Shown here one piece after another: positions 7,921-58,181 of a DNA stretch of 64,000 bases. The notes under the pieces are model-generated. The model saw only the letters and a list, made by a program, of their open reading frames with translations. It ran no database searches and had not been told where the DNA came from. The first letter of the stretch is position 1, and each line of letters opens with the position of its first letter. The position numbers were made by a program, and so were the translations under genes. This stretch comes from an uncultured Methanosarcinales archaeon (GTDB lineage Archaea; Nanobdellota; Nanobdellia; Woesearchaeales; UBA11576): the NCBI GenBank assembly GCA_964406185.1, contig CAYOQS010000003.1:48249-112248 (forward strand). Direction: 5' to 3'.

Positions 7921-8035
7921 TAATTACTGATTAGTTACGAAAGAGGCGGGCGGGAATATATATAAATTTTTATTATAATTTATAAATATATTAGATATTT
8001 CGAAAAATTTAAATAAAAGGTTGTATTAGTGCTAA
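7921..8035. promoter_or_regulatory. AT-rich divergent promoter region with several TATA-like boxes
   Basis: atatatataaatttttattataatttataaatatattagatatttcg lies between the SBP gene start (7882, -) and the AbrB-PhoU gene (+). Confidence 0.45.
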
Positions 8036-20844: not shown

Positions 20845-22026
20845 TTACTTCTTCTTGGACTTAGAAGACTTCTTCCCGGCCTTCCCCTTATTCTTTTTCG
20901 AGACCTCTTTCTTCTGCTTCTCAGCCAAAGCCTTGGCCTCAGCCAACGACATGCTCTTACCAGAATCAAGCCCGGAAGACTTCTCAGGAGATTTAGCTGA
21001 AGGTTCCGCAGAAGTTTTAGAATGCCTTTTGTACTTCGCAAGCACCCTCTCGATACGGCCATGATGCCAGCCAACCTCAAGAAGACGCTCCTTGATCTCA
21101 TCCACAGACTTGCCGCGCTTGATACTCTCCCTGATGTAGCTGTCCAGCTCCTTATCCACACTGTAGCCGAGCCGCTTCCTGCCGAAAACCAGGTAAAGCA
21201 CGACGGCAATCACCACCAAGGCCAACAGTATCAATATGCCCAAAAGCCGGGACTCCTCATCAGGCTCCACACCAGTCACGTCAGGGCCAGTAGTGGCAGG
21301 GACTGTTGAAGGAACCTGCTCAGGTCCTGGCTGCTGCTTCTCAAGCTGAACAGGAGTCACACCAGTCTCAAGAGCCACGTCAGAAGGCTCCTCATCAATC
21401 TCTTCCTCAGGCACATCTTCCTCAAGAGGAGCTTCCTCGCTGACCTCTTCCACCTCCTCTGCAACCTCAGCATAAGCATCATAACCCTGCATCTTACCTA
21501 TGAACAGATGATGCACGCCACCGTCATCAGCAGCAGTGAAATACACAAAATCCTCATCATCACTCACCACATCAGTCGGAAGCGCCTCCCACTCCTCAAG
21601 AACACGGTCATAAGCATGGAGTGCCACAGCATTGCGGGGCACGCCCTTATCCTCAAGCCAGGACTTCTCAACCCTGAAATCATAAAGGAACTTCTTGGTA
21701 TCATGAGGCACAAAACCCGAATACTTGATCTCATTGAACTCATAAGAATCATTCTCAGGCACATCAGGAAGGAAATCAGGAATGCTCCTCAGATTATACA
21801 CGGTAAGGCCTGCATTCTTCGCATCACGCTCGATAGTGAAAGTGATCCTGGTCAAGGCGATCTCTTCATTATCTATCTCAAATACATAAGGAGTGTCAGC
21901 CAGGACCTTCTCAAAGATAAGACCGTCCTGCGGATTCCACGCAGGATTATAGAAAGTAACACCGTAAGCAGCCGCCAACGGCAGCAGGAACAGTAATGCA
22001 CACAAAAATGCCAGGATACGTCTCAT
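20845..22026 (-). CDS. type-I membrane protein: signal peptide, ~190-aa extracellular domain, acidic linker, TM, Lys-rich cytoplasmic tail
   Basis: MRRILAFLCALLFLLPLAAAYG signal. TM LLGILILLALVVIAVVLYLVF. Tail rich in K. Confidence 0.6.
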   Translation of the reverse strand: MRRILAFLCALLFLLPLAAAYGVTFYNPAWNPQDGLIFEKVLADTPYVFEIDNEEIALTRITFTIERDAKNAGLTVYNLRSIPDFLPDVPENDSYEFNEIKYSGFVPHDTKKFLYDFRVEKSWLEDKGVPRNAVALHAYDRVLEEWEALPTDVVSDDEDFVYFTAADDGGVHHLFIGKMQGYDAYAEVAEEVEEVSEEAPLEEDVPEEEIDEEPSDVALETGVTPVQLEKQQPGPEQVPSTVPATTGPDVTGVEPDEESRLLGILILLALVVIAVVLYLVFGRKRLGYSVDKELDSYIRESIKRGKSVDEIKERLLEVGWHHGRIERVLAKYKRHSKTSAEPSAKSPEKSSGLDSGKSMSLAEAKALAEKQKKEVSKKNKGKAGKKSSKSKKK

Positions 22027-22169
22027 CAACCTCACACCCCCTTTATTATAAGCTGAGGAAGGGTGTCGTATTTAAATGTTTTTTGGAAAAACAACAGAAC
22101 AGAGCACAAGCTGAAAGGTGAAAAGAATAAAGAAATGAGGAGGATGAAAAGAAAAAAATTTATCAGACC

Positions 22170-30265: not shown

Positions 30266-30550
30266 TTTGGGTATACCTCCGAAATACACGTGTAACTATG
30301 ATTTGCAAACTGGTCACCCTTTTTACCCCCTTTACAATACGAAAAATAGCCCGAAAAGACTTATTTAACACTCAAATATCATCAAATATTGGTTTAAGCA
30401 TTCCCTACTGATATGTAACAGTGCTCCGTATAGTAACACGCCATATTTAAATGTTTCTGTTTTGTTGTTATTCATCAGTCCTAACAACTTCGAAACATCG
30501 AATATAAAGAAAAAAAGACTTATAAAGGCTTCTGCAAGCGATTTTACAAA

Positions 30551-40512: not shown

Positions 40513-41535
40513 ATGATCAGCGTCGTAATAGCGGCATACAACGCCGCAGAATATATCGAAGAAGTGCTGGATTCAGTGCTCAACCAGACACTGCTGCCGG
40601 ACGAGATAATAATAGTGGACGACGGAAGCAAAGACAAGACGCTTACCGTGATCAAGGAGTATCCAAAGAAGCTCAAGCCAGGCCTGAAGAAGAGATTCAA
40701 GAAAGTCAAGAGATACAAGATACTCAGCCAGAAGAACAAAGGTCCTGCAGGCGCGTCCAACACAGCGATAAAGGCTGCTCGGGGGGATGTGATATTATCT
40801 GTCGATTCCGACGCAGTGCTGGACAGGAAATTCATACGATCAGCAGTCAAAGAGCTCAAGAAAGACAAGAAACTCGGAGTGGTCGGAGGGTACATAAGGA
40901 CAGCAAACCCGGACAAGTTCTGGGCGCGCATGATGGGATACGACCTCGAGTACAGGTATGACCATATAGGATGGGTAGATGCTGACAGGGCCTATGTAGA
41001 GCACGTGAGCCCGAACAACACAGCATACAAATCAGAAGTGTTCAGGAAAGCAGGATACTTCGACCCAAAATACCACTACTGCCAGGACGTCGACCACAGC
41101 TACCGGGTCGTCGATGCGGGGTACAGGATAATGCTGCTGAAGAAAGTGGGCAGCAGGCATTACTGGAGAGAGACATTCCCCGGGTACACAAAGCAGCAGT
41201 TCAACGTATCATACTGGCGCATGAAACTTGTCCACAAGAAGCCAGGCAAGATAAGGGGAGACAAAGTGGCTGGGGCCCGTATGTTCATGCAGGTTCCTCT
41301 TACAGGCATCATAGGCCTGCTTTACATCACGACCATATTTCATACACCTATCTGGTGGGTGCCGACCATACTGCTCGGCCTGCTCCTGATCGAGAGATAT
41401 GAAGAGGCGTTGTATATCATGTGGAAGAAAAAGAGCGTGAGTGCATTGCTGATGCCGTTCGTGCACATATGGCGAAACATCGTGTGGGGCATAGCAGGCG
41501 TAAGCTACCTCGTAGGGAAGGCATTCGGAAGATGA
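40513..41535 (+). CDS. GT2 glycosyltransferase with C-terminal TM helices
   Basis: VVIAAYNAAEYIEEVLDSVLNQT...IIIVDDGSKDKT. Hydrophobic C-terminus. Confidence 0.85.
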   Translation: MISVVIAAYNAAEYIEEVLDSVLNQTLLPDEIIIVDDGSKDKTLTVIKEYPKKLKPGLKKRFKKVKRYKILSQKNKGPAGASNTAIKAARGDVILSVDSDAVLDRKFIRSAVKELKKDKKLGVVGGYIRTANPDKFWARMMGYDLEYRYDHIGWVDADRAYVEHVSPNNTAYKSEVFRKAGYFDPKYHYCQDVDHSYRVVDAGYRIMLLKKVGSRHYWRETFPGYTKQQFNVSYWRMKLVHKKPGKIRGDKVAGARMFMQVPLTGIIGLLYITTIFHTPIWWVPTILLGLLLIERYEEALYIMWKKKSVSALLMPFVHIWRNIVWGIAGVSYLVGKAFGR

Positions 41536-42551
41536 GCTACACAACAACAGGACTGGAAAAAAGAAAAAAGCAGAACATCGTACTGGAATTCCTGGGGAGG
41601 GTGTTCTTCATAGTGCCACGCATGCCGAAGTTCGCCCAGATAGAGATAACCAACTCCTGCAACCTCAACTGCAAGATGTGCCCGCGCGCCTTCCTGAAAG
41701 TGCCTTACAAGCACATGGACATGAAAGTATACAAGAAAGTGGTGGACAAGCTCGAAGGCATAAACACATTGACACTGACAGGATGGGGAGAGCCATTCTA
41801 CTACGAAAAGATATTCGACTGCATCAGGTACGCGAAGAAGAAAGGCATCAAGGTAAAGCTGACCACCAACGGCGTGCTGCTTAACGATGAGAAGATAAAG
41901 AAGATATTCTCATCAGGACTCGATGAGATAACATTCTCGCTGGACAACGTGAAAGGGGATCCTGACTTCGGGCATCCGAACAAAGCCGCTTTGAGAAACA
42001 TACAGAAGATAATCGAGATACGGGACGGGCAAGACCTTGAAAGGCCAAAAGTCGTGCTGCAATGCACGATGCACGCCCGGAAAGCGAAGAACGTGTTCGA
42101 CGTGATAAAATGGGGCGCTGACGTGGGCGCGGACAGGGTGAACATCGCCCGCCTGGACCTGCGGTTCGACCCCAACCTCAAAAGGGCGTCAGAGAAAGAA
42201 GAACAGAAGATATACAAGAAAGCAGACAGGCTCAGCAAAGAGAAAGGGATAAGAGTCGACATGGTGCAGTACGCCGTCTTCGACGGGTTCGCAAGATCCA
42301 TGTACAAGCTCCTGAGGAAGGTGCTCCACAGGTTCGACAAGAAATGCTCAAAAGGATACAACTACGTGTATGTGAATGTCGACGGGTTCGTCACACCATG
42401 CTGCTTCTACCCCCTCATGAAGATGGGAGACCTCAAGAAGCAAAGCCTGCGAAAGATATGGAAAGGCCCGCGGTACACAAAGTTCCGGCAGTTCAAGGTC
42501 AAAGGATGCATCAAATGCGATGTGATGAGGGTGAGGTATATAGGGAAATGA
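41532..42551 (+). CDS. radical SAM protein with SPASM-like C-terminal Cys cluster
   Basis: TNSCNLNCKMCPR is the CxxxCxxC motif. C-terminal CCFYP...GCIKCD. ATGA overlap at both ends. Confidence 0.8.
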   Translation: MSYTTTGLEKRKKQNIVLEFLGRVFFIVPRMPKFAQIEITNSCNLNCKMCPRAFLKVPYKHMDMKVYKKVVDKLEGINTLTLTGWGEPFYYEKIFDCIRYAKKKGIKVKLTTNGVLLNDEKIKKIFSSGLDEITFSLDNVKGDPDFGHPNKAALRNIQKIIEIRDGQDLERPKVVLQCTMHARKAKNVFDVIKWGADVGADRVNIARLDLRFDPNLKRASEKEEQKIYKKADRLSKEKGIRVDMVQYAVFDGFARSMYKLLRKVLHRFDKKCSKGYNYVYVNVDGFVTPCCFYPLMKMGDLKKQSLRKIWKGPRYTKFRQFKVKGCIKCDVMRVRYIGK

Positions 42552-43819
42552 AAAATAAAAAGAAAAACCTCATAATCCTGGGAGGTGGCCTTTCAGGCCT
42601 GGCCGCCGCAGACATTCTCTCAAATCACTTCAATGTCAATTTGATCGAAAAGCAAGACCATCTAGGCGGACTTGCTTCCAGTTTTGAACAGGACGGCGAG
42701 ATGATACCAAAATACTACCACCACGTCATACGACACAACAGCACCACACAGAAATACCTCCGCAGATTTGGCCTTATGGAAGGCAGCAGATGGAAAAAGA
42801 TAAACGTCGCTATCGGGGTGAAAGGCAAGCTCACAGACATAACAAAACCCCTGCAACTAATCCGTTTCGGATATCTTAGCCTGTGGGGAAGATTACGTTT
42901 CGGCATTTTCGGCCTGCACACCATATTTTTCATGAATCCTGAAAAAATACGGGAGGATGCCGACGCGCAGACCTGGCTCGAAAAAAAAGCAGGGAAAGAA
43001 GTTACAAAAAAAATATTCTACAACCTTTACGGAAGGAACAAGTTCAACATAAGCCTCGAGAGAATCTCGGCGAAACAGTTCGCATACCGGCTTAAAGAAA
43101 GGGAAGTCTATGATAAGTTCACATATCCGCCTGCAGGCCTCCATAAGCTCATAGACGGACTTGAAAAAAGCATAAAAAAGAAAAGAGGAAATATCATCAA
43201 ATCAGCAAAACTTGAAAAAGTAGATCTGAAAAAGAAAAAAGTATATGTAGACGGCAAAGTTCTCGATGCTGATGTAATCATAAGTTCAATACCTATACCA
43301 ACATTCCTGAAGATAAGTGAAGGCGTCCCTAAAAAATACAGAAAAAAACTGGCTAACATAAAATGGTGCCCCTGTGTAAATGTCACGTTCGGAACCGAAA
43401 CATTTCTGGACAAGAGGTATTACTGGACAAACCTTTTTGAGGAAAGGGCGCACGTCCTGATGCAGCATTCCATACTCGTAGACAAATACAGCTCAAAAAT
43501 AAACTGGATATTAAGATACGGCGGATCCGAGCAAGACATCGGACTTGATGACAAAAAGATCGCAGAAGAATACCTCAGAGTAGTTTCAAGATATTTCCCA
43601 AATATCAAAGTAAAGTGGGCCAAAGTCTTCAAAGAACGATATGCTGAGCCAGTATATGATAAAGACTACTCAAAGCACAAACCAGACTACACAACACCCA
43701 TAGATGGCTTATACATGACGGGCATCCAAGTCACCCATCCCAAGATAAGGAACATGAACACTGCGCTGGAAGCCGGAAGAAAAGTCGCGAAAATCATCTT
43801 AAAAAGGGATGCTGAATAG
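42548..43819 (+). CDS. FAD/NAD(P)-binding Rossmann oxidoreductase (amine-oxidase / UDP-galactopyranose-mutase-like)
   Basis: NLIILGGGLSGLAAADIL...IEKQDHLGGLASSF dinucleotide-binding motif. Confidence 0.7.
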   Translation: MKNKKKNLIILGGGLSGLAAADILSNHFNVNLIEKQDHLGGLASSFEQDGEMIPKYYHHVIRHNSTTQKYLRRFGLMEGSRWKKINVAIGVKGKLTDITKPLQLIRFGYLSLWGRLRFGIFGLHTIFFMNPEKIREDADAQTWLEKKAGKEVTKKIFYNLYGRNKFNISLERISAKQFAYRLKEREVYDKFTYPPAGLHKLIDGLEKSIKKKRGNIIKSAKLEKVDLKKKKVYVDGKVLDADVIISSIPIPTFLKISEGVPKKYRKKLANIKWCPCVNVTFGTETFLDKRYYWTNLFEERAHVLMQHSILVDKYSSKINWILRYGGSEQDIGLDDKKIAEEYLRVVSRYFPNIKVKWAKVFKERYAEPVYDKDYSKHKPDYTTPIDGLYMTGIQVTHPKIRNMNTALEAGRKVAKIILKRDAE

Positions 43820-51607: not shown

Positions 51608-52129
51608 TCAGCTCAGACAAAAATCATCATCAAAATCTTTGTCTAAAAGAGAAGACCTTATCTTAATTACTGCTTTTTTTATATCTGATCCCTGAGCGCC
51701 TGCCCCTCCGTCTACTAGGTGCAGACCAGGACGGTGCATGTCGGATGTCAAGAAAACTGCAAACATACCTTCCTTGAAAGGTACAAAAATCTCATCATTT
51801 ACGTGAGAGTAAAGCGCCCTATCTTTTTCAGCCACGTAATCATCTAGAACCACGTTACTGTCGTTCTTAGAGCCTAATCCTACAATCTCCTCACCAGATA
51901 TCATGAACTGAAGATCAACATAAGTCTTATGCACCTCTGCGGGCTTCTCGTTGATGCTCTTTGTCCTGTACTCGCTGATCATGAGGAAGATGTCTTCGCC
52001 AGATATATCGTACCGACCTGCAGCCATGGAAGAGAAATCTGTCCTAAAGATGAAAATAAAAGCTTTCTTCAGCACCGCAGGAAGAATATCAAACTCCTGC
52101 CCCTTCGTCTTCAGAAAACCGTATATCAT
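51608..52129 (-). CDS. YhcH/YjgK/YiaL (DUF386, EbgC-like) family protein
   Basis: Start MIYGF... (ATG 52129), compared with family N-terminus MIxG. HKTYVDLQFMISGEE resembles the family's conserved core. Confidence 0.6.
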   Translation of the reverse strand: MIYGFLKTKGQEFDILPAVLKKAFIFIFRTDFSSMAAGRYDISGEDIFLMISEYRTKSINEKPAEVHKTYVDLQFMISGEEIVGLGSKNDSNVVLDDYVAEKDRALYSHVNDEIFVPFKEGMFAVFLTSDMHRPGLHLVDGGAGAQGSDIKKAVIKIRSSLLDKDFDDDFCLS

Positions 52130-52157
52130 CTCATACCTCAAATACCTGTCAAGATAA

Positions 52158-52724
52158 TCATGGGAAAGGATGTACACCTTTAGCATACATTATAAGTTCG
52201 CACACTTCCCTGACAGCACCTGAACCGCCGGGTCTCCCCGTGATGTAATCAGCCGCTGCTGAAACCTGTTGGTATGCATCAGCAACAGCTATGCCAAGAC
52301 CTGCCATTTTGATGCAGCCAATATCATTCAAGTCGTTTCCCACGAAACACACCTGATCCTCTGATACTACCTTATCCTCAAGAAGCATCCTGAATTCGCT
52401 CTCCTTGTCATCCGCATCCTGCCTACACTCTATACCGAGCTTCTTAGCCCTTGCTGAAGTCACAGGATTCGTCTCTTTCGAAAGTATGAAAACACCTACA
52501 TCAGAATGCTTCCTCAAATACTCCAGACCCAGACCATCTCCCCTATCAGCCATAACGGTCTCTTTCCCTGACTGGTCCACATAAACCTTGTTGTCTGTCA
52601 GAGTGCCATCAAAGTCCAATACAAGAAACCTGATTCTCGCGAACTTTTCTTTCAGCCCATTAGAGAGACTATCATAAACATCTTTCATATTATCACCCAA
52701 AAATGAATGTAAAATCAAATCCAT
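52158..52724 (-). CDS. kdsC: KdsC-type HAD-IIIA phosphatase (Kdo-8-P / nonulosonate-9-P phosphatase)
   Basis: FLVLDFDGTLTD...GKETVMADRGDGLG matches the YrbI family. Confidence 0.8.
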   Translation of the reverse strand: MDLILHSFLGDNMKDVYDSLSNGLKEKFARIRFLVLDFDGTLTDNKVYVDQSGKETVMADRGDGLGLEYLRKHSDVGVFILSKETNPVTSARAKKLGIECRQDADDKESEFRMLLEDKVVSEDQVCFVGNDLNDIGCIKMAGLGIAVADAYQQVSAAADYITGRPGGSGAVREVCELIMYAKGVHPFP

Positions 52725-52750
52725 CTCAAATCAAAAGAATAAAAAAAAAA

Positions 52751-53584
52751 TCAAGCACTCACAGTCAGTTCTGGCGCTATCTTATCCCTGGCTGAAGTCT
52801 TTCCAGTCGCTGACAGGACTGCTGCCAGCTCATCGTGAAGCCGTAAGATGTTCTCGATCGCATCCATCCGTATCATACACATACCATCAGATACAGCATC
52901 TTCAGGCTTAGGATGTACTTCGGCAAAAACCCCTGTATAACCGAATACTGAAGAAGCTAGCAGATAACGTCCAGCCAGCTCCCTATTGCCTTTTGTAAAC
53001 CCTTCCTTGTTTATGTACTGGGTAGAGTGCGTACAGTCAAGAATCACCCTGTCGAAATGCTTCTTAAAAAGGTCTACCGAGCTGAAATCAACGATGAACC
53101 TATCGTAACCGAATGCTGTACCTCTCTCAGTAAGCCATACCTCAGCATCAGGGTTCTGACTCTTCACCTTGCTTATCGAATGCACTATGTTGTCAGGGCT
53201 CATCCACTGGCCTTTCTTTATGTTAATCTTGTCGAAATACTTCCCGCACTCGACAAGAAGATCGGTCTGCCTGCAGAGGAACGCCGGAATCTGGATACAA
53301 TCTACAAGTCCTGCCAGTTTCTTCACCTGATAGACCTCGTGCACATCAGTAATCAACCTTATGCCCGGAATCTCTTTCTTTACCCTGGCGAACATCTTCA
53401 GTGCCTTGTCCAGACCAGGACCCCTCTTGCCGTTCACAGAGCTCCTGTTCGCCTTGTCGAAAGAACCCTTGTAATACCAGTCTTTACCTTCCATTATCTT
53501 GCTAAGCCTCTTGGCAGTCTCGACATAGAATTCCTCCTCTTCCATAGAGCAAGGACCCACTAACCATATTTTTCCATCACTCAT
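52751..53584 (-). CDS. kdsA: 3-deoxy-8-phosphooctulonate synthase (KdsA) / DAHP-synthase-I family
   Basis: GPCSME...KGSFDKANRSS...VDCIQIPAFLCRQTDLL. Confidence 0.85.
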   Translation of the reverse strand: MSDGKIWLVGPCSMEEEEFYVETAKRLSKIMEGKDWYYKGSFDKANRSSVNGKRGPGLDKALKMFARVKKEIPGIRLITDVHEVYQVKKLAGLVDCIQIPAFLCRQTDLLVECGKYFDKINIKKGQWMSPDNIVHSISKVKSQNPDAEVWLTERGTAFGYDRFIVDFSSVDLFKKHFDRVILDCTHSTQYINKEGFTKGNRELAGRYLLASSVFGYTGVFAEVHPKPEDAVSDGMCMIRMDAIENILRLHDELAAVLSATGKTSARDKIAPELTVSA

Positions 53585-53596
53585 TTCAATAACCTC

Positions 53597-54553
53597 CTAT
53601 TTGGACAGTCCGATATTTGACAATACATCCCTTAGCTGGACCCGCTGGGTATCATCTGCCGGCCTTAAAGGCGCCCTTTCATCAGCACTCATCAGACCGA
53701 GCAAATCCATAGCCCCTTTCATCGCGATATGCCAGCCAATCGGCAGGGCCACATCAAAAAACGGCTCCTCATACACCTTCACTATCTTGAGGGAATTCCT
53801 GTAATCTCCCTCTGCAAAATACCTGTAAAAATCTTCTTCAATCTTAGGAGCGAAGCTTCCAACACCCACCAGATATGCCTGTACACCAAAACCTGCACAG
53901 GTCAAGAATTTCCACATTGAACCTCCCGCTACAACAAAAGTCATCCTGTCGGAAAGATTCGCTGCAAGCTTGTATCTCAGACCCTCATCTCCAAGTTCCT
54001 CCTTCATTCCAACAATGTTCTTAATCCCTGCGAGCCTCGTGCACAGATCAATAGAATATTTCTTTGTCGCTGAGCCTATTTTTGCATTCCTCAAGGGCAC
54101 AGCATGTATCATCACACCTATATCTACACTTTCCGCGACATTCTTAAAATACTCAAATATTGCGTCATCAGAATAGTATCTTTCAGGATAGTATAGCAGG
54201 ATACAGTCAGCACCAATCTCCTGGGCATGCTTCGCGAAATCTATCGCCCTGTCTGTAGAGCCGACAGGGGGGTTCGCAGCTATCACCAACGGACGGGATT
54301 CTCCTGAATCTGCAGCTTGGACAACAGTCCTATTCAGTTCCTTGACCTCCTCATCTGTCAGAAGATTGAAACGGCTAGTCCCTGCAGTGACCATCACCGT
54401 CCGGACTTTATAGCCTGTAAGGAATTTTACATAATCCCTGACCGCGTCAAAATCTATGGAACCATCTTTCCTAAAAGCAGGCGGTATAGGATAAACCGGT
54501 CCTACCATCCTCTTTCTCAAAACATCAAGCCTCTCAACAGCACTCGCTTTCAT
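53597..54553 (-). CDS. DapA/NanA-family class I aldolase (N-acetylneuraminate lyase-like)
   Basis: MVTAGTSRFNLLTDEE and the overall DHDPS/NAL TIM-barrel pattern. Confidence 0.7.
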   Translation of the reverse strand: MKASAVERLDVLRKRMVGPVYPIPPAFRKDGSIDFDAVRDYVKFLTGYKVRTVMVTAGTSRFNLLTDEEVKELNRTVVQAADSGESRPLVIAANPPVGSTDRAIDFAKHAQEIGADCILLYYPERYYSDDAIFEYFKNVAESVDIGVMIHAVPLRNAKIGSATKKYSIDLCTRLAGIKNIVGMKEELGDEGLRYKLAANLSDRMTFVVAGGSMWKFLTCAGFGVQAYLVGVGSFAPKIEEDFYRYFAEGDYRNSLKIVKVYEEPFFDVALPIGWHIAMKGAMDLLGLMSADERAPLRPADDTQRVQLRDVLSNIGLSK

Positions 54554-54563
54554 GATATTCTCC

Positions 54564-55295
54564 TCAATCTGTCTTAATCACACCTTCATCTATCAGGAAC
54601 TGAGCATATTTTAGATCAACCTTTTCGTCGATATCCACATACCGGGGCATGTGATATCCCTTCACCTTGCCCTTGAAGTAGTTCCTGTTCTTCACAAATG
54701 AATTCCACCAAGACATGTAAAAACCACCATTAGGTCTGTAAATGGGCTCTTGGTCTTGGGAACGCGTATCTCCTGTTATAAGCGGACAAGGATCAAAAAC
54801 CCCTTTCAAGAGGCCTGTCTCCTTGTCCTCCTTTATGCTCAACTGCGGCGGGAACTCAAAATCCATTATGCTTACTACAGAATCCACATCCTCTGTCAGA
54901 AGTTTGAATCCTTCTTTTATGTCTGAGGCATTCCTGAACGGACATGTGGGAAGTAGTAATGTAACAGTATCAAACTTATCTGGACCAATATCATCCACCA
55001 TATGGCATACCAAATCAAGCGCCTTTGCAGTATCTGCTGCAAATTTCGGATCCCTCCTTACCGCATCAATGCCATCGTACTTCTTTGCCAGATCCAGTAT
55101 TTCATCATCATCAGAAGAAAGGATTATCCTACTGAAACAACCGCTTTTTAGTGCTGCATCCATTGTCCAGCAAACTAAAGGCTTTCCTGCTAACCCTAAC
55201 ACATTCTTACGCGGCAATCGCTTTGACCCTCCGCGGGCAGGGATTATTGCCAGAGACTTTATCTTTATTTCGTCCATAAAACACCTTAAAAACAA
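54564..55295 (-). CDS. CMP-Kdo / CMP-N-acylneuraminate cytidylyltransferase (KdsB/NeuA family)
   Basis: LAIIPARGGSKRLPRKNVLGLAGKPLV. Confidence 0.85.
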   Translation of the reverse strand: MFLRCFMDEIKIKSLAIIPARGGSKRLPRKNVLGLAGKPLVCWTMDAALKSGCFSRIILSSDDDEILDLAKKYDGIDAVRRDPKFAADTAKALDLVCHMVDDIGPDKFDTVTLLLPTCPFRNASDIKEGFKLLTEDVDSVVSIMDFEFPPQLSIKEDKETGLLKGVFDPCPLITGDTRSQDQEPIYRPNGGFYMSWWNSFVKNRNYFKGKVKGYHMPRYVDIDEKVDLKYAQFLIDEGVIKTD

Positions 55296-55363
55296 TAATT
55301 TCTTAAGAAAACGAACCCAAAATATTTAAATCTTTCTAATTTTAAGGTAAAACAACAAAAACT

Positions 55364-55474: not shown

Positions 55475-55919
55475 TCACTTCTTAGAACTGCTGATAACTC
55501 TTGCAGGATTTCCTGCGATTGTCACACCAGAAGGAAAAGATTTAGTGACCACCGATCCCGCACCTACAACAACATTGTCGCCAAGCTCAACACCAGGCAA
55601 AATAACTGCATTCATACCTATCCACACATTGTTGCCAATCTTGATGGGTCTCACCTTAATATGTTTCCGAAAATCTTTCTTATCATGATTGCTGCTGATA
55701 ATACCCACATTGCAAGCCCAGATAACATTCTTACCAAAATGAATACCATTCCTCCCCTGAATGAAACAACCAGGAGTCGTCAAGAAACATTTCGGTATCC
55801 CCCCCCCCGAACTTAATGTTCTCCGAAAAGGTGACCAAACTATTATGGTGTACCGGCCAAGGCACTTTCTTGTTGTGGCTCAGAAATCTTTGGTGTAATC
55901 TCTGAATGATCGATATAAT
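55475..55919 (-). pseudogene. hexapeptide-repeat sugar O-acetyltransferase (Mac/NeuD-like) interrupted by +1 frameshift at G10 homopolymer
   Basis: Hexapeptide body IKIGNNVWIGMNAVILPGVELGDNVVVGAGSVVTK in one frame. The N-terminal ~40 codons are in another frame (..SENIKFGGG). The two frames join if the G-run is 9 rather than 10. Confidence 0.6.
55799..55808. repeat. C10 homopolymer (G10 on coding strand) inside acetyltransferase gene
   Basis: tatcc-cccccccccc-gaac. Confidence 0.9.
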
Positions 55920-56423
55920 TCACACCCCCTTATAGTCGTTTGAATCAGACATCGCTATCAGCTTAACAACATCGTACGTCTCGAACTTATATACCCTAGA
56001 GGTCACTGTTTCTGACCAATCCTTTATAATCTCCCTGTATTTACCCCTGATTTCATTACCGATCCGAAGCATGTGCTTTGCGTTCTTCGAGACTATGACT
56101 ATTGACAAATCCCATTCGCCTGAAACTGAAAAGATCTCTGAAACAAAAGGATTTTCCTTCAGGAAATTGATAAAACCATCAAGATCCGAAGCAGAATAAT
56201 TGTGGAGTTTTATCTTCACTTCGACAATGTTATCAAATCCCATGTGCCTGAGCCTCAACTGTATCCGCGGGTAAAAAATCTTATTTCTAAGCATCTTCGA
56301 AATTCGCTTTTTAGTAGAATCAACAGAAAGTCCAACTTCAGCAGCAATGTTTGTAAGAGACATCCTGCAATCCTGCTGCAGCAGGTTCAAGATTATGCAA
56401 TCTTTCTTATCCATCCCAACCAT
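55920..56423 (-). CDS. Lrp/AsnC-family transcriptional regulator
   Basis: HTH DKKDCIILNLLQQDCRMSLTNIAAEVGLS plus a C-terminal RAM-like domain. Confidence 0.85.
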   Translation of the reverse strand: MVGMDKKDCIILNLLQQDCRMSLTNIAAEVGLSVDSTKKRISKMLRNKIFYPRIQLRLRHMGFDNIVEVKIKLHNYSASDLDGFINFLKENPFVSEIFSVSGEWDLSIVIVSKNAKHMLRIGNEIRGKYREIIKDWSETVTSRVYKFETYDVVKLIAMSDSNDYKGV

Positions 56424-56485
56424 TCTAGATATAACGTGAAAAGACTATTTAAATCTTTGTTTTTAGACATAATGGCCCGGAAAAT

Positions 56486-56660: not shown

Positions 56661-58181
56661 ATGGACTACAAAAAACTCGCGAAGGATTCTGCATGGGTCT
56701 TCGCGATATCCTTCGCAATCATACCTCTCAACCTTCTCATACGTATGCTGTACGCGAGAAACCTGACTATCGAGGATTACGGAATATTCTACGGTCTCAT
56801 TGCGTTCTTTGGACTTTTCACATTCCTGAGTGATTTTGGGGTGAGGAGCGCCACACCATACATAGTGTCAAAATACGATGTAAAGAAGAATCACGGGAAG
56901 ATAAAAGCAATATATTTCGGTGGGCAAATATTCCAGCTTACAGCCTCATTGATCGTAGTTACGCTTATGATCATATTCAGAAGCGACATAATAACACAAG
57001 TCTTTAACAACTCCCAAAACGCCCCAATAATGCTCAACTTCTTCCTCCTATTCTGGATAATAAACACGATATTCAGAGCAAACCTGTCCTTCTTCATCGG
57101 CTATGCTGAGACAAGGACGTCCAAAATATTCGAGTTTGTGAATCTTCTGGCAGTATTGATAATATCATATGTACTGTTCTTCTTCTTCGAATCATACAAA
57201 GTACCTGTCATCGCTTATCTTCTCGCAATAATAATCTGCGCGCTCCTCACAACAGTGCTATTCTGGTACAGACACTATAATGTGTTCAACGCAAAGATGT
57301 CATATAACAGGACACTCTTCAAAGAAATCAAGAAATATTCGCTCGCAGTTGTACTCGCCTCTGCTTCACAACTCATAATGCCACAGATCGACACAGTAAT
57401 ACTCCAGACAATATCTGGTGCGGAAAGTGTTGCATACTACACAACAGGCGTATCTGCCGCATCACTTATTCTTGTTTTAGCAGCATCTGTACGAATAGTT
57501 CTCCTCCCCGCGTTTTCAAGACTTTGGCACAAGAAGGAAAAAGCCAGGTTATCAAAGCTGATAGAAGTAATAATGCACAACCTCATCATTATCGCATTGC
57601 CTATAAGCATGCTTTTCTCACTTTTCTCGCTACACATCATAATCTTGCTCTTCGGAGAAGGGCTTGCCCCCTCACAGATAGTCTTGCAGTTTTTCGCATT
57701 CGTCTTCATCATAAAGCTATACAACGAATTCCTATTTATGTGTCTCAAGTCCACAGGAAAACCCGGGAAGTTCAGCAAAGCAATGATTATCGGTCTCGTG
57801 ATAAACGTAGTCCTAGACCTGATACTAATACCACAGATCGGAATAAAGGGAGCTATAATAGCGACATCTGCAACATACCTGTTCATATTCATATATGCAA
57901 TAAACTACATCAAAAAGACGGTGAAAATAAGAATCCATAAGATGAAGCTGCTGAAGATAGGTGCGGCATCAGCAGGATTTGTCTTGACATCCCTCATTCT
58001 CTACACCCAATACGCTCCGATAACCATGTATAGCACAATGATAAACAGCATCGCAAACCACAGCATCGCATTCCTCGCCGGCCTAGCAGCTTACTCAATC
58101 CTGCTGATAGTGCTAAAGGCGATTGACATAACAACAATTCTATGGATGAAACAGCTCGTGATGACAAGGGAGAAAAAATAA
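56661..58181 (+). CDS. Wzx-type polysaccharide/oligosaccharide flippase (MOP superfamily)
   Basis: 506 aa with 12-14 TM helices. N-terminus typical of polysaccharide biosynthesis protein. Low GC. Confidence 0.8.
   Translation: MDYKKLAKDSAWVFAISFAIIPLNLLIRMLYARNLTIEDYGIFYGLIAFFGLFTFLSDFGVRSATPYIVSKYDVKKNHGKIKAIYFGGQIFQLTASLIVVTLMIIFRSDIITQVFNNSQNAPIMLNFFLLFWIINTIFRANLSFFIGYAETRTSKIFEFVNLLAVLIISYVLFFFFESYKVPVIAYLLAIIICALLTTVLFWYRHYNVFNAKMSYNRTLFKEIKKYSLAVVLASASQLIMPQIDTVILQTISGAESVAYYTTGVSAASLILVLAASVRIVLLPAFSRLWHKKEKARLSKLIEVIMHNLIIIALPISMLFSLFSLHIIILLFGEGLAPSQIVLQFFAFVFIIKLYNEFLFMCLKSTGKPGKFSKAMIIGLVINVVLDLILIPQIGIKGAIIATSATYLFIFIYAINYIKKTVKIRIHKMKLLKIGAASAGFVLTSLILYTQYAPITMYSTMINSIANHSIAFLAGLAAYSILLIVLKAIDITTILWMKQLVMTREKK

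Follow-up and report, generated by a model that had tools for sequence, protein, structure and literature searches.

The window, i.e. the whole 64-kb stretch of DNA analysed here, carries on its minus strand a gene for a hexapeptide-repeat sugar O-acetyltransferase, which directly follows an Lrp/AsnC-family regulator gene (lrp) ending in a TGA stop at 55922-55920 (Table 1). The acetyltransferase frame is broken at a homopolymer, read as C10 on the plus strand and G10 on the coding strand, and in this G10 allele the upstream frame terminates after about 63 codons at a TAA (55733-55731), so that, compared with its intact homologues, the gene is disrupted by a +1 shift and a premature stop. Removal of one G yields an uninterrupted 147-codon frame, and a G12 tract restores it likewise. 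The C-terminal body beyond the tract carries the catalytic-type His of an SSNHD motif and the coils of a left-handed beta-helix. The frames on either side bear out the preliminary description of the locus, which had placed the frameshift exactly at this run and had counted about 40 N-terminal codons in frame after the lrp stop, the number being 37 (55919-55809). Its further statement that nine Gs would give an intact ORF holds for the frame and fails for the start, no canonical start codon being present before the GTG at codon 19.

Table 1. Positions of the features at and around the acetyltransferase locus
Feature	Position	Strand	Remarks
Disrupted hexapeptide-repeat (LacA/Maa-like) sugar O-acetyltransferase gene, whole	55475..55919	-	Continuous 147-codon frame only at G9 or G12
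N-terminal 37 codons, IISIIQRLHQRFLSHNKKVPWPVHHNSLVTFSENIKF	55809..55919	-	In the lrp frame; begin right after the lrp stop and enter the G tract
G10 homopolymer, +1 frameshift site	55799..55808	-	Encodes Gly-Gly-Gly plus one extra base
C-terminal body, IPKCFLTTPGCFIQG...SSSKK	55475..55798	-	Frame shifted by one base; closes with TGA at 55477-55475
First canonical start, GTG (codon 19)	55863..55865	-	A start here would drop the conserved N-terminal helix
Shine-Dalgarno-like GGGGGTG in the lrp 3′ end	55923..55929	-	ATT (55919-55917) follows after 3 nt, ATA (55916-55914) after 6 nt
Lrp/AsnC-family regulator gene (lrp)	55920..56423	-	Pfam HTH_AsnC-type and AsnC_trans_reg; aligns with P. furiosus LrpA (PDB 1i1g)
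BRE/TATA-like promoter motif AAAGATTTAAATA upstream of lrp	56446..56458	-	Exact copy
BRE/TATA-like motif AAAGATTTAAATA upstream of the cytidylyltransferase operon	55323..55335	-	Identical to the lrp copy
One-mismatch copy of AAAGATTTAAATA	8003-8015	+	Upstream of another ORF
One-mismatch copy of AAAGATTTAAATA	22069-22081	-	Upstream of another ORF
One-mismatch copy of AAAGATTTAAATA	30444-30456	-	Upstream of another ORF
Kdo-type ulosonic-acid pathway	51608-55295	-	About 20 kb downstream of an STT3/AglB-like gene

The lrp transcription unit in a glycan island

A BRE/TATA-like 13-mer, AAAGATTTAAATA, was found in two exact copies and three one-mismatch copies, each upstream of an ORF, while 0.09 copies are expected by chance. 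The exact copies precede lrp and the cytidylyltransferase operon, and no BRE/TATA-like motif lies between lrp and the acetyltransferase; thus the acetyltransferase is the second cistron of the lrp unit, and the downstream Kdo-type genes, having a motif of their own, are independent of the frameshifted gene. The lrp copy lies about 20 nt from the ATG. The sequence suggests that the lrp mRNA may be leaderless or have a very short leader, and the identical promoters hint that lrp and the cytidylyltransferase operon could be co-regulated, possibly by the Lrp protein itself.

The downstream operon encodes an acylneuraminate/PseF-like cytidylyltransferase, a DHDPS-family (DHDPS/NanA-like) protein, KdsA (264 bits versus an equivalog cutoff of 242), a KdsC-like phosphatase and a NanQ-like DUF386 protein. 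The cytidylyltransferase shares about 60% identity with its best relatives, of which those with names are bacterial, and this suggests that the Kdo-type pathway may have been acquired horizontally. The island also holds STT3/AglB-like, AglJ-like, glycosyltransferase and flippase-like genes, a location by which the disrupted gene, like those of phase-variable loci, bears on a surface structure. The GC content is 39-48% from about 36 to 64 kb, versus 49-53% in the first 30 kb. At the two closest homologue loci that were examined, a Wzx-like flippase gene stands immediately before the acetyltransferase gene in the same orientation, whereas the flippase-like gene of the window (56661-58181) is divergently oriented and separated from the acetyltransferase gene by lrp, indicating that the 5′ context has been rearranged. 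An Rfam scan over the whole window returned no RNA family.

The archaeal setting assumed from the outset is supported by the BRE/TATA-type motifs, by genes for a PGF-pre-PGF protein, an STT3/AglB-like protein and an AglJ-like transferase, and by the relatives of a geranylgeranyl-reductase-family protein, of which the best are unnamed (up to 64% identity) and the named ones (44-57%) all belong to Candidatus Woesearchaeota or Nanoarchaeota. The archaeon is probably DPANN-like, a provisional label that rests on this one protein. Three of the named reductase relatives have the gene order around the reductase in common with the window, namely an S8 peptidase, a He_PIG/PKD giant protein and then the reductase (L166, L167 and L168); their contigs end less than about 6 kb past the reductase, where the glycan genes begin, with an STT3 gene being reached in L168 only. 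The pattern suggests a strain-variable island that assembles poorly.

Two further features of the window were observed. On the plus strand the AT skew is positive in 31 of 32 2-kb bins, rising to +0.34 with a lowest value of -0.013, and A runs of at least 6 nt number 72 versus 12 T runs, despite genes lying on both strands. Also on the plus strand, a GT2 ORF (40513-41535), a radical SAM/SPASM ORF (41421-42551) and an amine oxidase-like ORF (42344-43819) overlap successively by about 115 and 208 nt, and the listed starts of the ORFs in this stretch are probably too far upstream.

The G tract and the protein restored across it

No G/C homopolymer of the window other than these ten Gs exceeds 6 nt, A/T runs being common by comparison, and 42 kb of sequence from three syntenic relatives likewise held no G/C run of at least 7 nt, i.e. 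the set of several tracts that defines a phasome was not found in these sequences. As 5 of 100 dinucleotide-preserving shuffles attain the observed G9 match count, the tract by itself is only modestly unusual, and the meaning of G10 comes from its position. It constitutes a repeat of hypermutable length inside an ORF, as phase-variable loci have, and begins after the first 37 codons of the frame. Of the Gly codons in the window GGG is used least (16-18%), the homologues in an 18-sequence alignment carry G-x-x where the window has GGG-GGG-GGG, and with G9 the loop has the same length as in the closest homologues. About 1 Mb of loci around distant homologues contained just eight tracts of at least 8 nt, none of them at the homologous site. 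Among the runs seen elsewhere, a C8 lies inside a distant, 33% identical acetyltransferase homologue of a Chthoniobacter sp. MAG (L070, 8306-8313), and a G10 lies about 2.7 kb downstream of another acetyltransferase homologue (L020, 11042-11051).

The protein read from the G9-restored frame has the repeats above threshold, the left-handed beta-helix fold and the catalytic-type His of the hexapeptide-repeat superfamily. It matched the Pfam models Hexapep (PF00132, 50.4 bits) and Hexapep_2 (PF14602, 46.7 bits; cutoff 27). Its best NCBIfam matches were Maa, LacA, WbbJ and WcaF, whose models have equivalog or subfamily cutoffs of 192-347 bits, and every one of these scores fell under its cutoff (77.6 versus 314, 73.8 versus 347, 71.2 versus 243 and 65.8 versus 192 bits, respectively), so far under that superfamily membership alone is supported. 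Thousands of intact proteins of 160-215 aa aligned with the 147-codon frame across the tract, covering 93-99% of that frame; the best of them are unnamed and 58-60% identical in a search of 5.8 billion proteins, which returned no homologue above 60%. All 23 invariant columns of the 18-sequence alignment are kept by the restored frame, and H78 of the SSNHD motif, invariant in that alignment, aligns with the His of the maltose O-acetyltransferase 3srt.

An AlphaFold2 model of the G9-restored protein had a mean pLDDT of 91.5 and showed an N-terminal helix (residues 2-13) followed by beta-helix coils, with Gly-Gly-Gly 38-40 standing just before the sole internal stretch of lower confidence. When this predicted structure was used as the query, the top Foldseek matches were Maa and LacA (probability 1.00, TM 0.69-0.76). 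The Maa/LacA family thus supplies the best matches in both sequence and fold (3srt, 3hjj, 1ocx and 1kqa; E 3e-19) and its catalytic-type His aligns, although its N-terminal region is about 40 residues longer than that of the window protein. The polysialic acid O-acetyltransferases NeuO of E. coli K1 and OatWY of meningococci, which act by O-acetylating an ulosonic-acid surface glycan, belong to the same left-handed beta-helix hexapeptide superfamily (E 9e-10 against PDB 3jqy and 3e-9 against 2wlc), but their similarity to the window protein is confined to the C-terminal coils, Maa and LacA being closer. Pfam, alignment and predicted fold agree with the identity first proposed for the gene, a hexapeptide-repeat sugar O-acetyltransferase.

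The missing start codon

From the lrp TGA to codon 19 the N-terminal frame contains no ATG, GTG or TTG, the codons after the lrp stop being ATT ATA TCG ATC ATT CAG AGA TTA CAC CAA AGA TTT CTG AGC CAC AAC AAG AAA GTG. The first ATT and the ATA stand where a start codon would be expected from the Shine-Dalgarno-like GGGGGTG, a heptamer that also precedes the ATG of gene 2277-2996 by 5 nt and recurs where gene 20845-22035 starts, and GGAGGTG-type sites lie in front of many other genes of the window. Family homology begins within a few codons of the lrp stop (HQRFLSHN versus FQRIFRIN, with the Asn invariant), and the N-terminal segment aligns with the homologue consensus Q-[KR]-I-x-R-I-N..VPWPVH. 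Among the 120 homologues listed, the W-x-V-H motif could be located in 112, and in 111 of these it is preceded by at least 15 residues. The lone exception, P0076, is called from MPWPVH, and this gene call has been shortened by an in-frame TAG. The N-terminus is thus near-constant among the listed homologues, and a start at the GTG of codon 19 would remove a constant part of the family; with the sole MPWPVH-called homologue being a TAG-shortened call, this GTG was rejected as the likely native start. At the P0076 locus (1462-1464 in L165, a Logan contig from SRR30574052) the TAG splits the N-terminal region into MKLSLRTFVRRLLRVPELVDTRSYLQ and LAFKYLLRINTDVPWPVH, and the full N-terminus is readable upstream; the gene call starts internally, and P0076 is itself a broken gene, the second in this accessory acetyltransferase family.

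Recoding or readthrough at the lrp UGA is excluded, since TGA serves as a stop more often than any other triplet in the window, closing 27 of its 46 ORFs. A 'SNDY' match to P0017 seemed to carry the homology past the TGA into the Lrp tail, but 286 of 300 shuffled tails scored as high or higher, so the match is not significant. Relative to P. furiosus LrpA the Lrp ORF has about 22 extra residues, which are uninformative as a sign of fusion because lengths vary in the family.

The absence of a canonical start for the conserved N-terminal helix is probably a second lesion. Its most likely cause is either the mutation of an ancestral ATG into ATA or ATT, with the Shine-Dalgarno site in front still recognisable, or a small indel just after the GTG that overlaps the lrp stop (GTGA), each of which would be a second lesion; weak near-cognate initiation at the ATA or ATT behind the good Shine-Dalgarno site could also account for it and would not be one. 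The preliminary description had overlooked the missing start, and this apparent second lesion shifts the weight of evidence towards a young pseudogene.

Inactivation, switching, recoding or error

The tract, the frame break, the homology on both sides of it, the G10 in two run-level assemblies and the missing start are directly observed at the locus, and four explanations for them were weighed. One, raised already in the preliminary description, is an error of sequencing or assembly, with the true tract being G9 and the frame intact. Several platforms are prone to errors in long G/C homopolymers, and outside the tract the ORF is flawless. However, two Logan contigs (L001 and L002), assembled separately per SRA run, match the window at 100% with the G10 included, over 12.5 kb for the 29-kb contig from SRR15425351 and over 2.1 kb for the 2.1-kb contig from SRR15425350, the two runs possibly sharing study and platform so that a systematic bias is conceivable. 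In addition, eight A/T runs of 8-9 nt leave the intact long ORFs around them unbroken, in a window that is 93% coding and in which no other split gene was noticed, so homopolymer miscalls are not general in the assembly. With the same G10 in two run-level assemblies and the other homopolymers neutral to their ORFs, we regard an error as unlikely.

A second explanation, put forward in the preliminary description, is that of a maintained contingency locus, in which slippage would toggle surface-glycan O-acetylation between ON (G9 or G12) and OFF (G10 or G11), for example for escape from viruses or modulated host contact, and the sample would have caught the OFF state. In its favour is the anatomy of the tract in a glycan gene. 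The G10 lies in the 5′ third of an otherwise intact glycan-modifying ORF, it is built of the rarest Gly codon at a site where the homologues are not Gly-Gly-Gly, its G9 form gives the loop length of the closest homologues, a Shine-Dalgarno-like site precedes the ORF, and it is the sole long G/C run of the window, with a likelihood of about one in twenty by composition. The CMP-sugar operon downstream has its own promoter, so switching would touch the decoration step only, and the physical hypermutability of a G9-G10 tract would in principle allow reversion. Bacterial precedents are OafA (PMC11868660) and the poly-G tract of PglI (PMC10425976), the latter being compared below.

On the other side, no tract-length variant was found, the window and both run-level assemblies, consensus sequences in which minority lengths are invisible, all having G10, and the exact products of the G9, G12 and G6 alleles from GTG or TTG starts were absent from a collection of 15 billion proteins; the called product of the locus is a 77-aa fragment only, called by Logan only. 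Close relatives in which an ON allele might be seen did not emerge either, since a scan of one genome per GTDB species, a set from which the window's own genome is absent, gave bacterial or MAG homologues only, at no more than 53% identity, and a JGI metagenome scan gave none above 52%. All window proteins that were looked up form singletons at 90% identity, with Lrp occurring on contigs of two SRA runs only and the other proteins looked up only on the NCBI 247-kb contig and in Logan. Moreover, phase-variable organisms usually carry several tracts, yet no second candidate is present in the window or in its syntenic relatives, the 5′ context is rearranged and the conserved N-terminus has no canonical start, a second lesion there being probable. 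Under switching, translation would begin at the near-cognate ATA or ATT behind the Shine-Dalgarno site, or by coupling to lrp. A maintained switch is thus possible but doubtful, and the specific form in which a poly-G switch would control O-acetylation of a Kdo-type surface or N-linked glycan in a DPANN-like archaeon, from an lrp-coupled near-cognate ATA/ATT start, is proposed with slightly more reserve still.

Recoding would make G10 the working allele, part of the product becoming full-length either by RNA polymerase slippage on the C10, giving G9 transcripts, or by a ribosomal +1 shift on GGG-GGG-GGG-G. Homopolymers of nine or more are known sites of RNA polymerase slippage, the ORF is intact on both sides of the tract, and, to judge from the codons, tRNA-Gly would re-pair perfectly after a +1 slip within the run. 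On the other hand, the codon after the run is GAT and not a stop, no stimulatory element was noticed, none of the homologues in the 18-sequence alignment has a conserved frameshift at the tract site, and the start-codon problem persists, all of which makes recoding very unlikely.

The explanation that we favour, at about even confidence, is a young pseudogene inactivated by slippage in the variable glycan island of a DPANN-like archaeon. A slipped-strand gain of one G would have turned a coding G9 (Gly-Gly-Gly) into G10 and inactivated the acetyltransferase, with translation ending about 63 codons in, at the premature TAA. The OFF allele is the consensus in the sampled population; the start codon of the conserved N-terminal helix would also have been lost, and a dispensable decoration step would have been dropped from a variable glycan cluster, no switch being maintained. 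It is the combination of an OFF allele as consensus with the lack of a canonical start that leads us to read the locus as a young pseudogene, and the missing ON-allele product in the 15-billion-protein collection, the rearranged 5′ context and the lack of a second G/C tract point the same way. We infer that the extra G arose by slippage, that a start codon was lost, that these events are recent and that the substrate would be a sugar of the Kdo-containing glycan. Against a pseudogene speak the 147 codons that, bar one G, have neither a stop nor a second frameshift, keep 23 of 23 invariant columns and fold in the model at a pLDDT of 91.5, so that any decay can only be very recent. The tract itself also speaks against it, with three of the rarest Gly codons standing in place of non-Gly residues of the homologues, in the 5′ third of a gene modifying a surface glycan; this placement and codon make-up of the G10 form the classic anatomy of a contingency locus.

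In mechanism the locus follows the familiar pattern of a glycan-modifying gene frameshifted at a homopolymer. Phase variation of NeuO depends on a repeat in the 5′ part of its coding region, a heptanucleotide and not a homopolymer. PglI of Neisseria is a membrane acyltransferase-3 type enzyme, not a soluble hexapeptide-repeat one. This protein-glycan O-acetyltransferase has a poly-G tract in its coding region whose length sets ON or OFF by frameshift (PMC10425976). Switching of PglI has been shown across isolates, whereas the window locus has G10 in all assemblies, an archaeal host and no canonical start. As for inactivation, coding homopolymers are hotspots of inactivating frameshifts, as exemplified by inlA of L. 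monocytogenes, and a survey by Orsi et al. (2010) that included 18 archaeal genomes reported poly(A) and poly(T) tracts, unlike poly(G) and poly(C), to be enriched and skewed towards the 5′ end, the signal being weaker in archaea (PMC2831843). Such surveys of coding homopolymers including archaea agree in a signal that is mainly poly(A)/poly(T) and weaker in archaea (PMC2831843, PMC3315296). The window locus resembles these homopolymer pseudogenes in its coding-tract frameshift and differs from them in that its tract is poly(G).

In the literature searched we found no documented phase variation of an archaeal cellular gene mediated by simple sequence repeats (SSRs), the sole archaeal 'phase variation' being the invertase system of the virus phiCh1, and a 2025 review of phase variation names archaeal distributions as future work only (PMC11868660). 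At present the locus stands as one frameshifted accessory gene in MAG-type sequence, and its use is that of an annotation note, i.e. a pseudogene with a hypermutable tract. If the tract truly switches, phase variation of surface glycans by strand slippage would reach beyond host-associated bacteria into an uncultured archaeal lineage, and, as a maintained switch, it could be the first SSR-mediated phase variation of an archaeal cellular gene.
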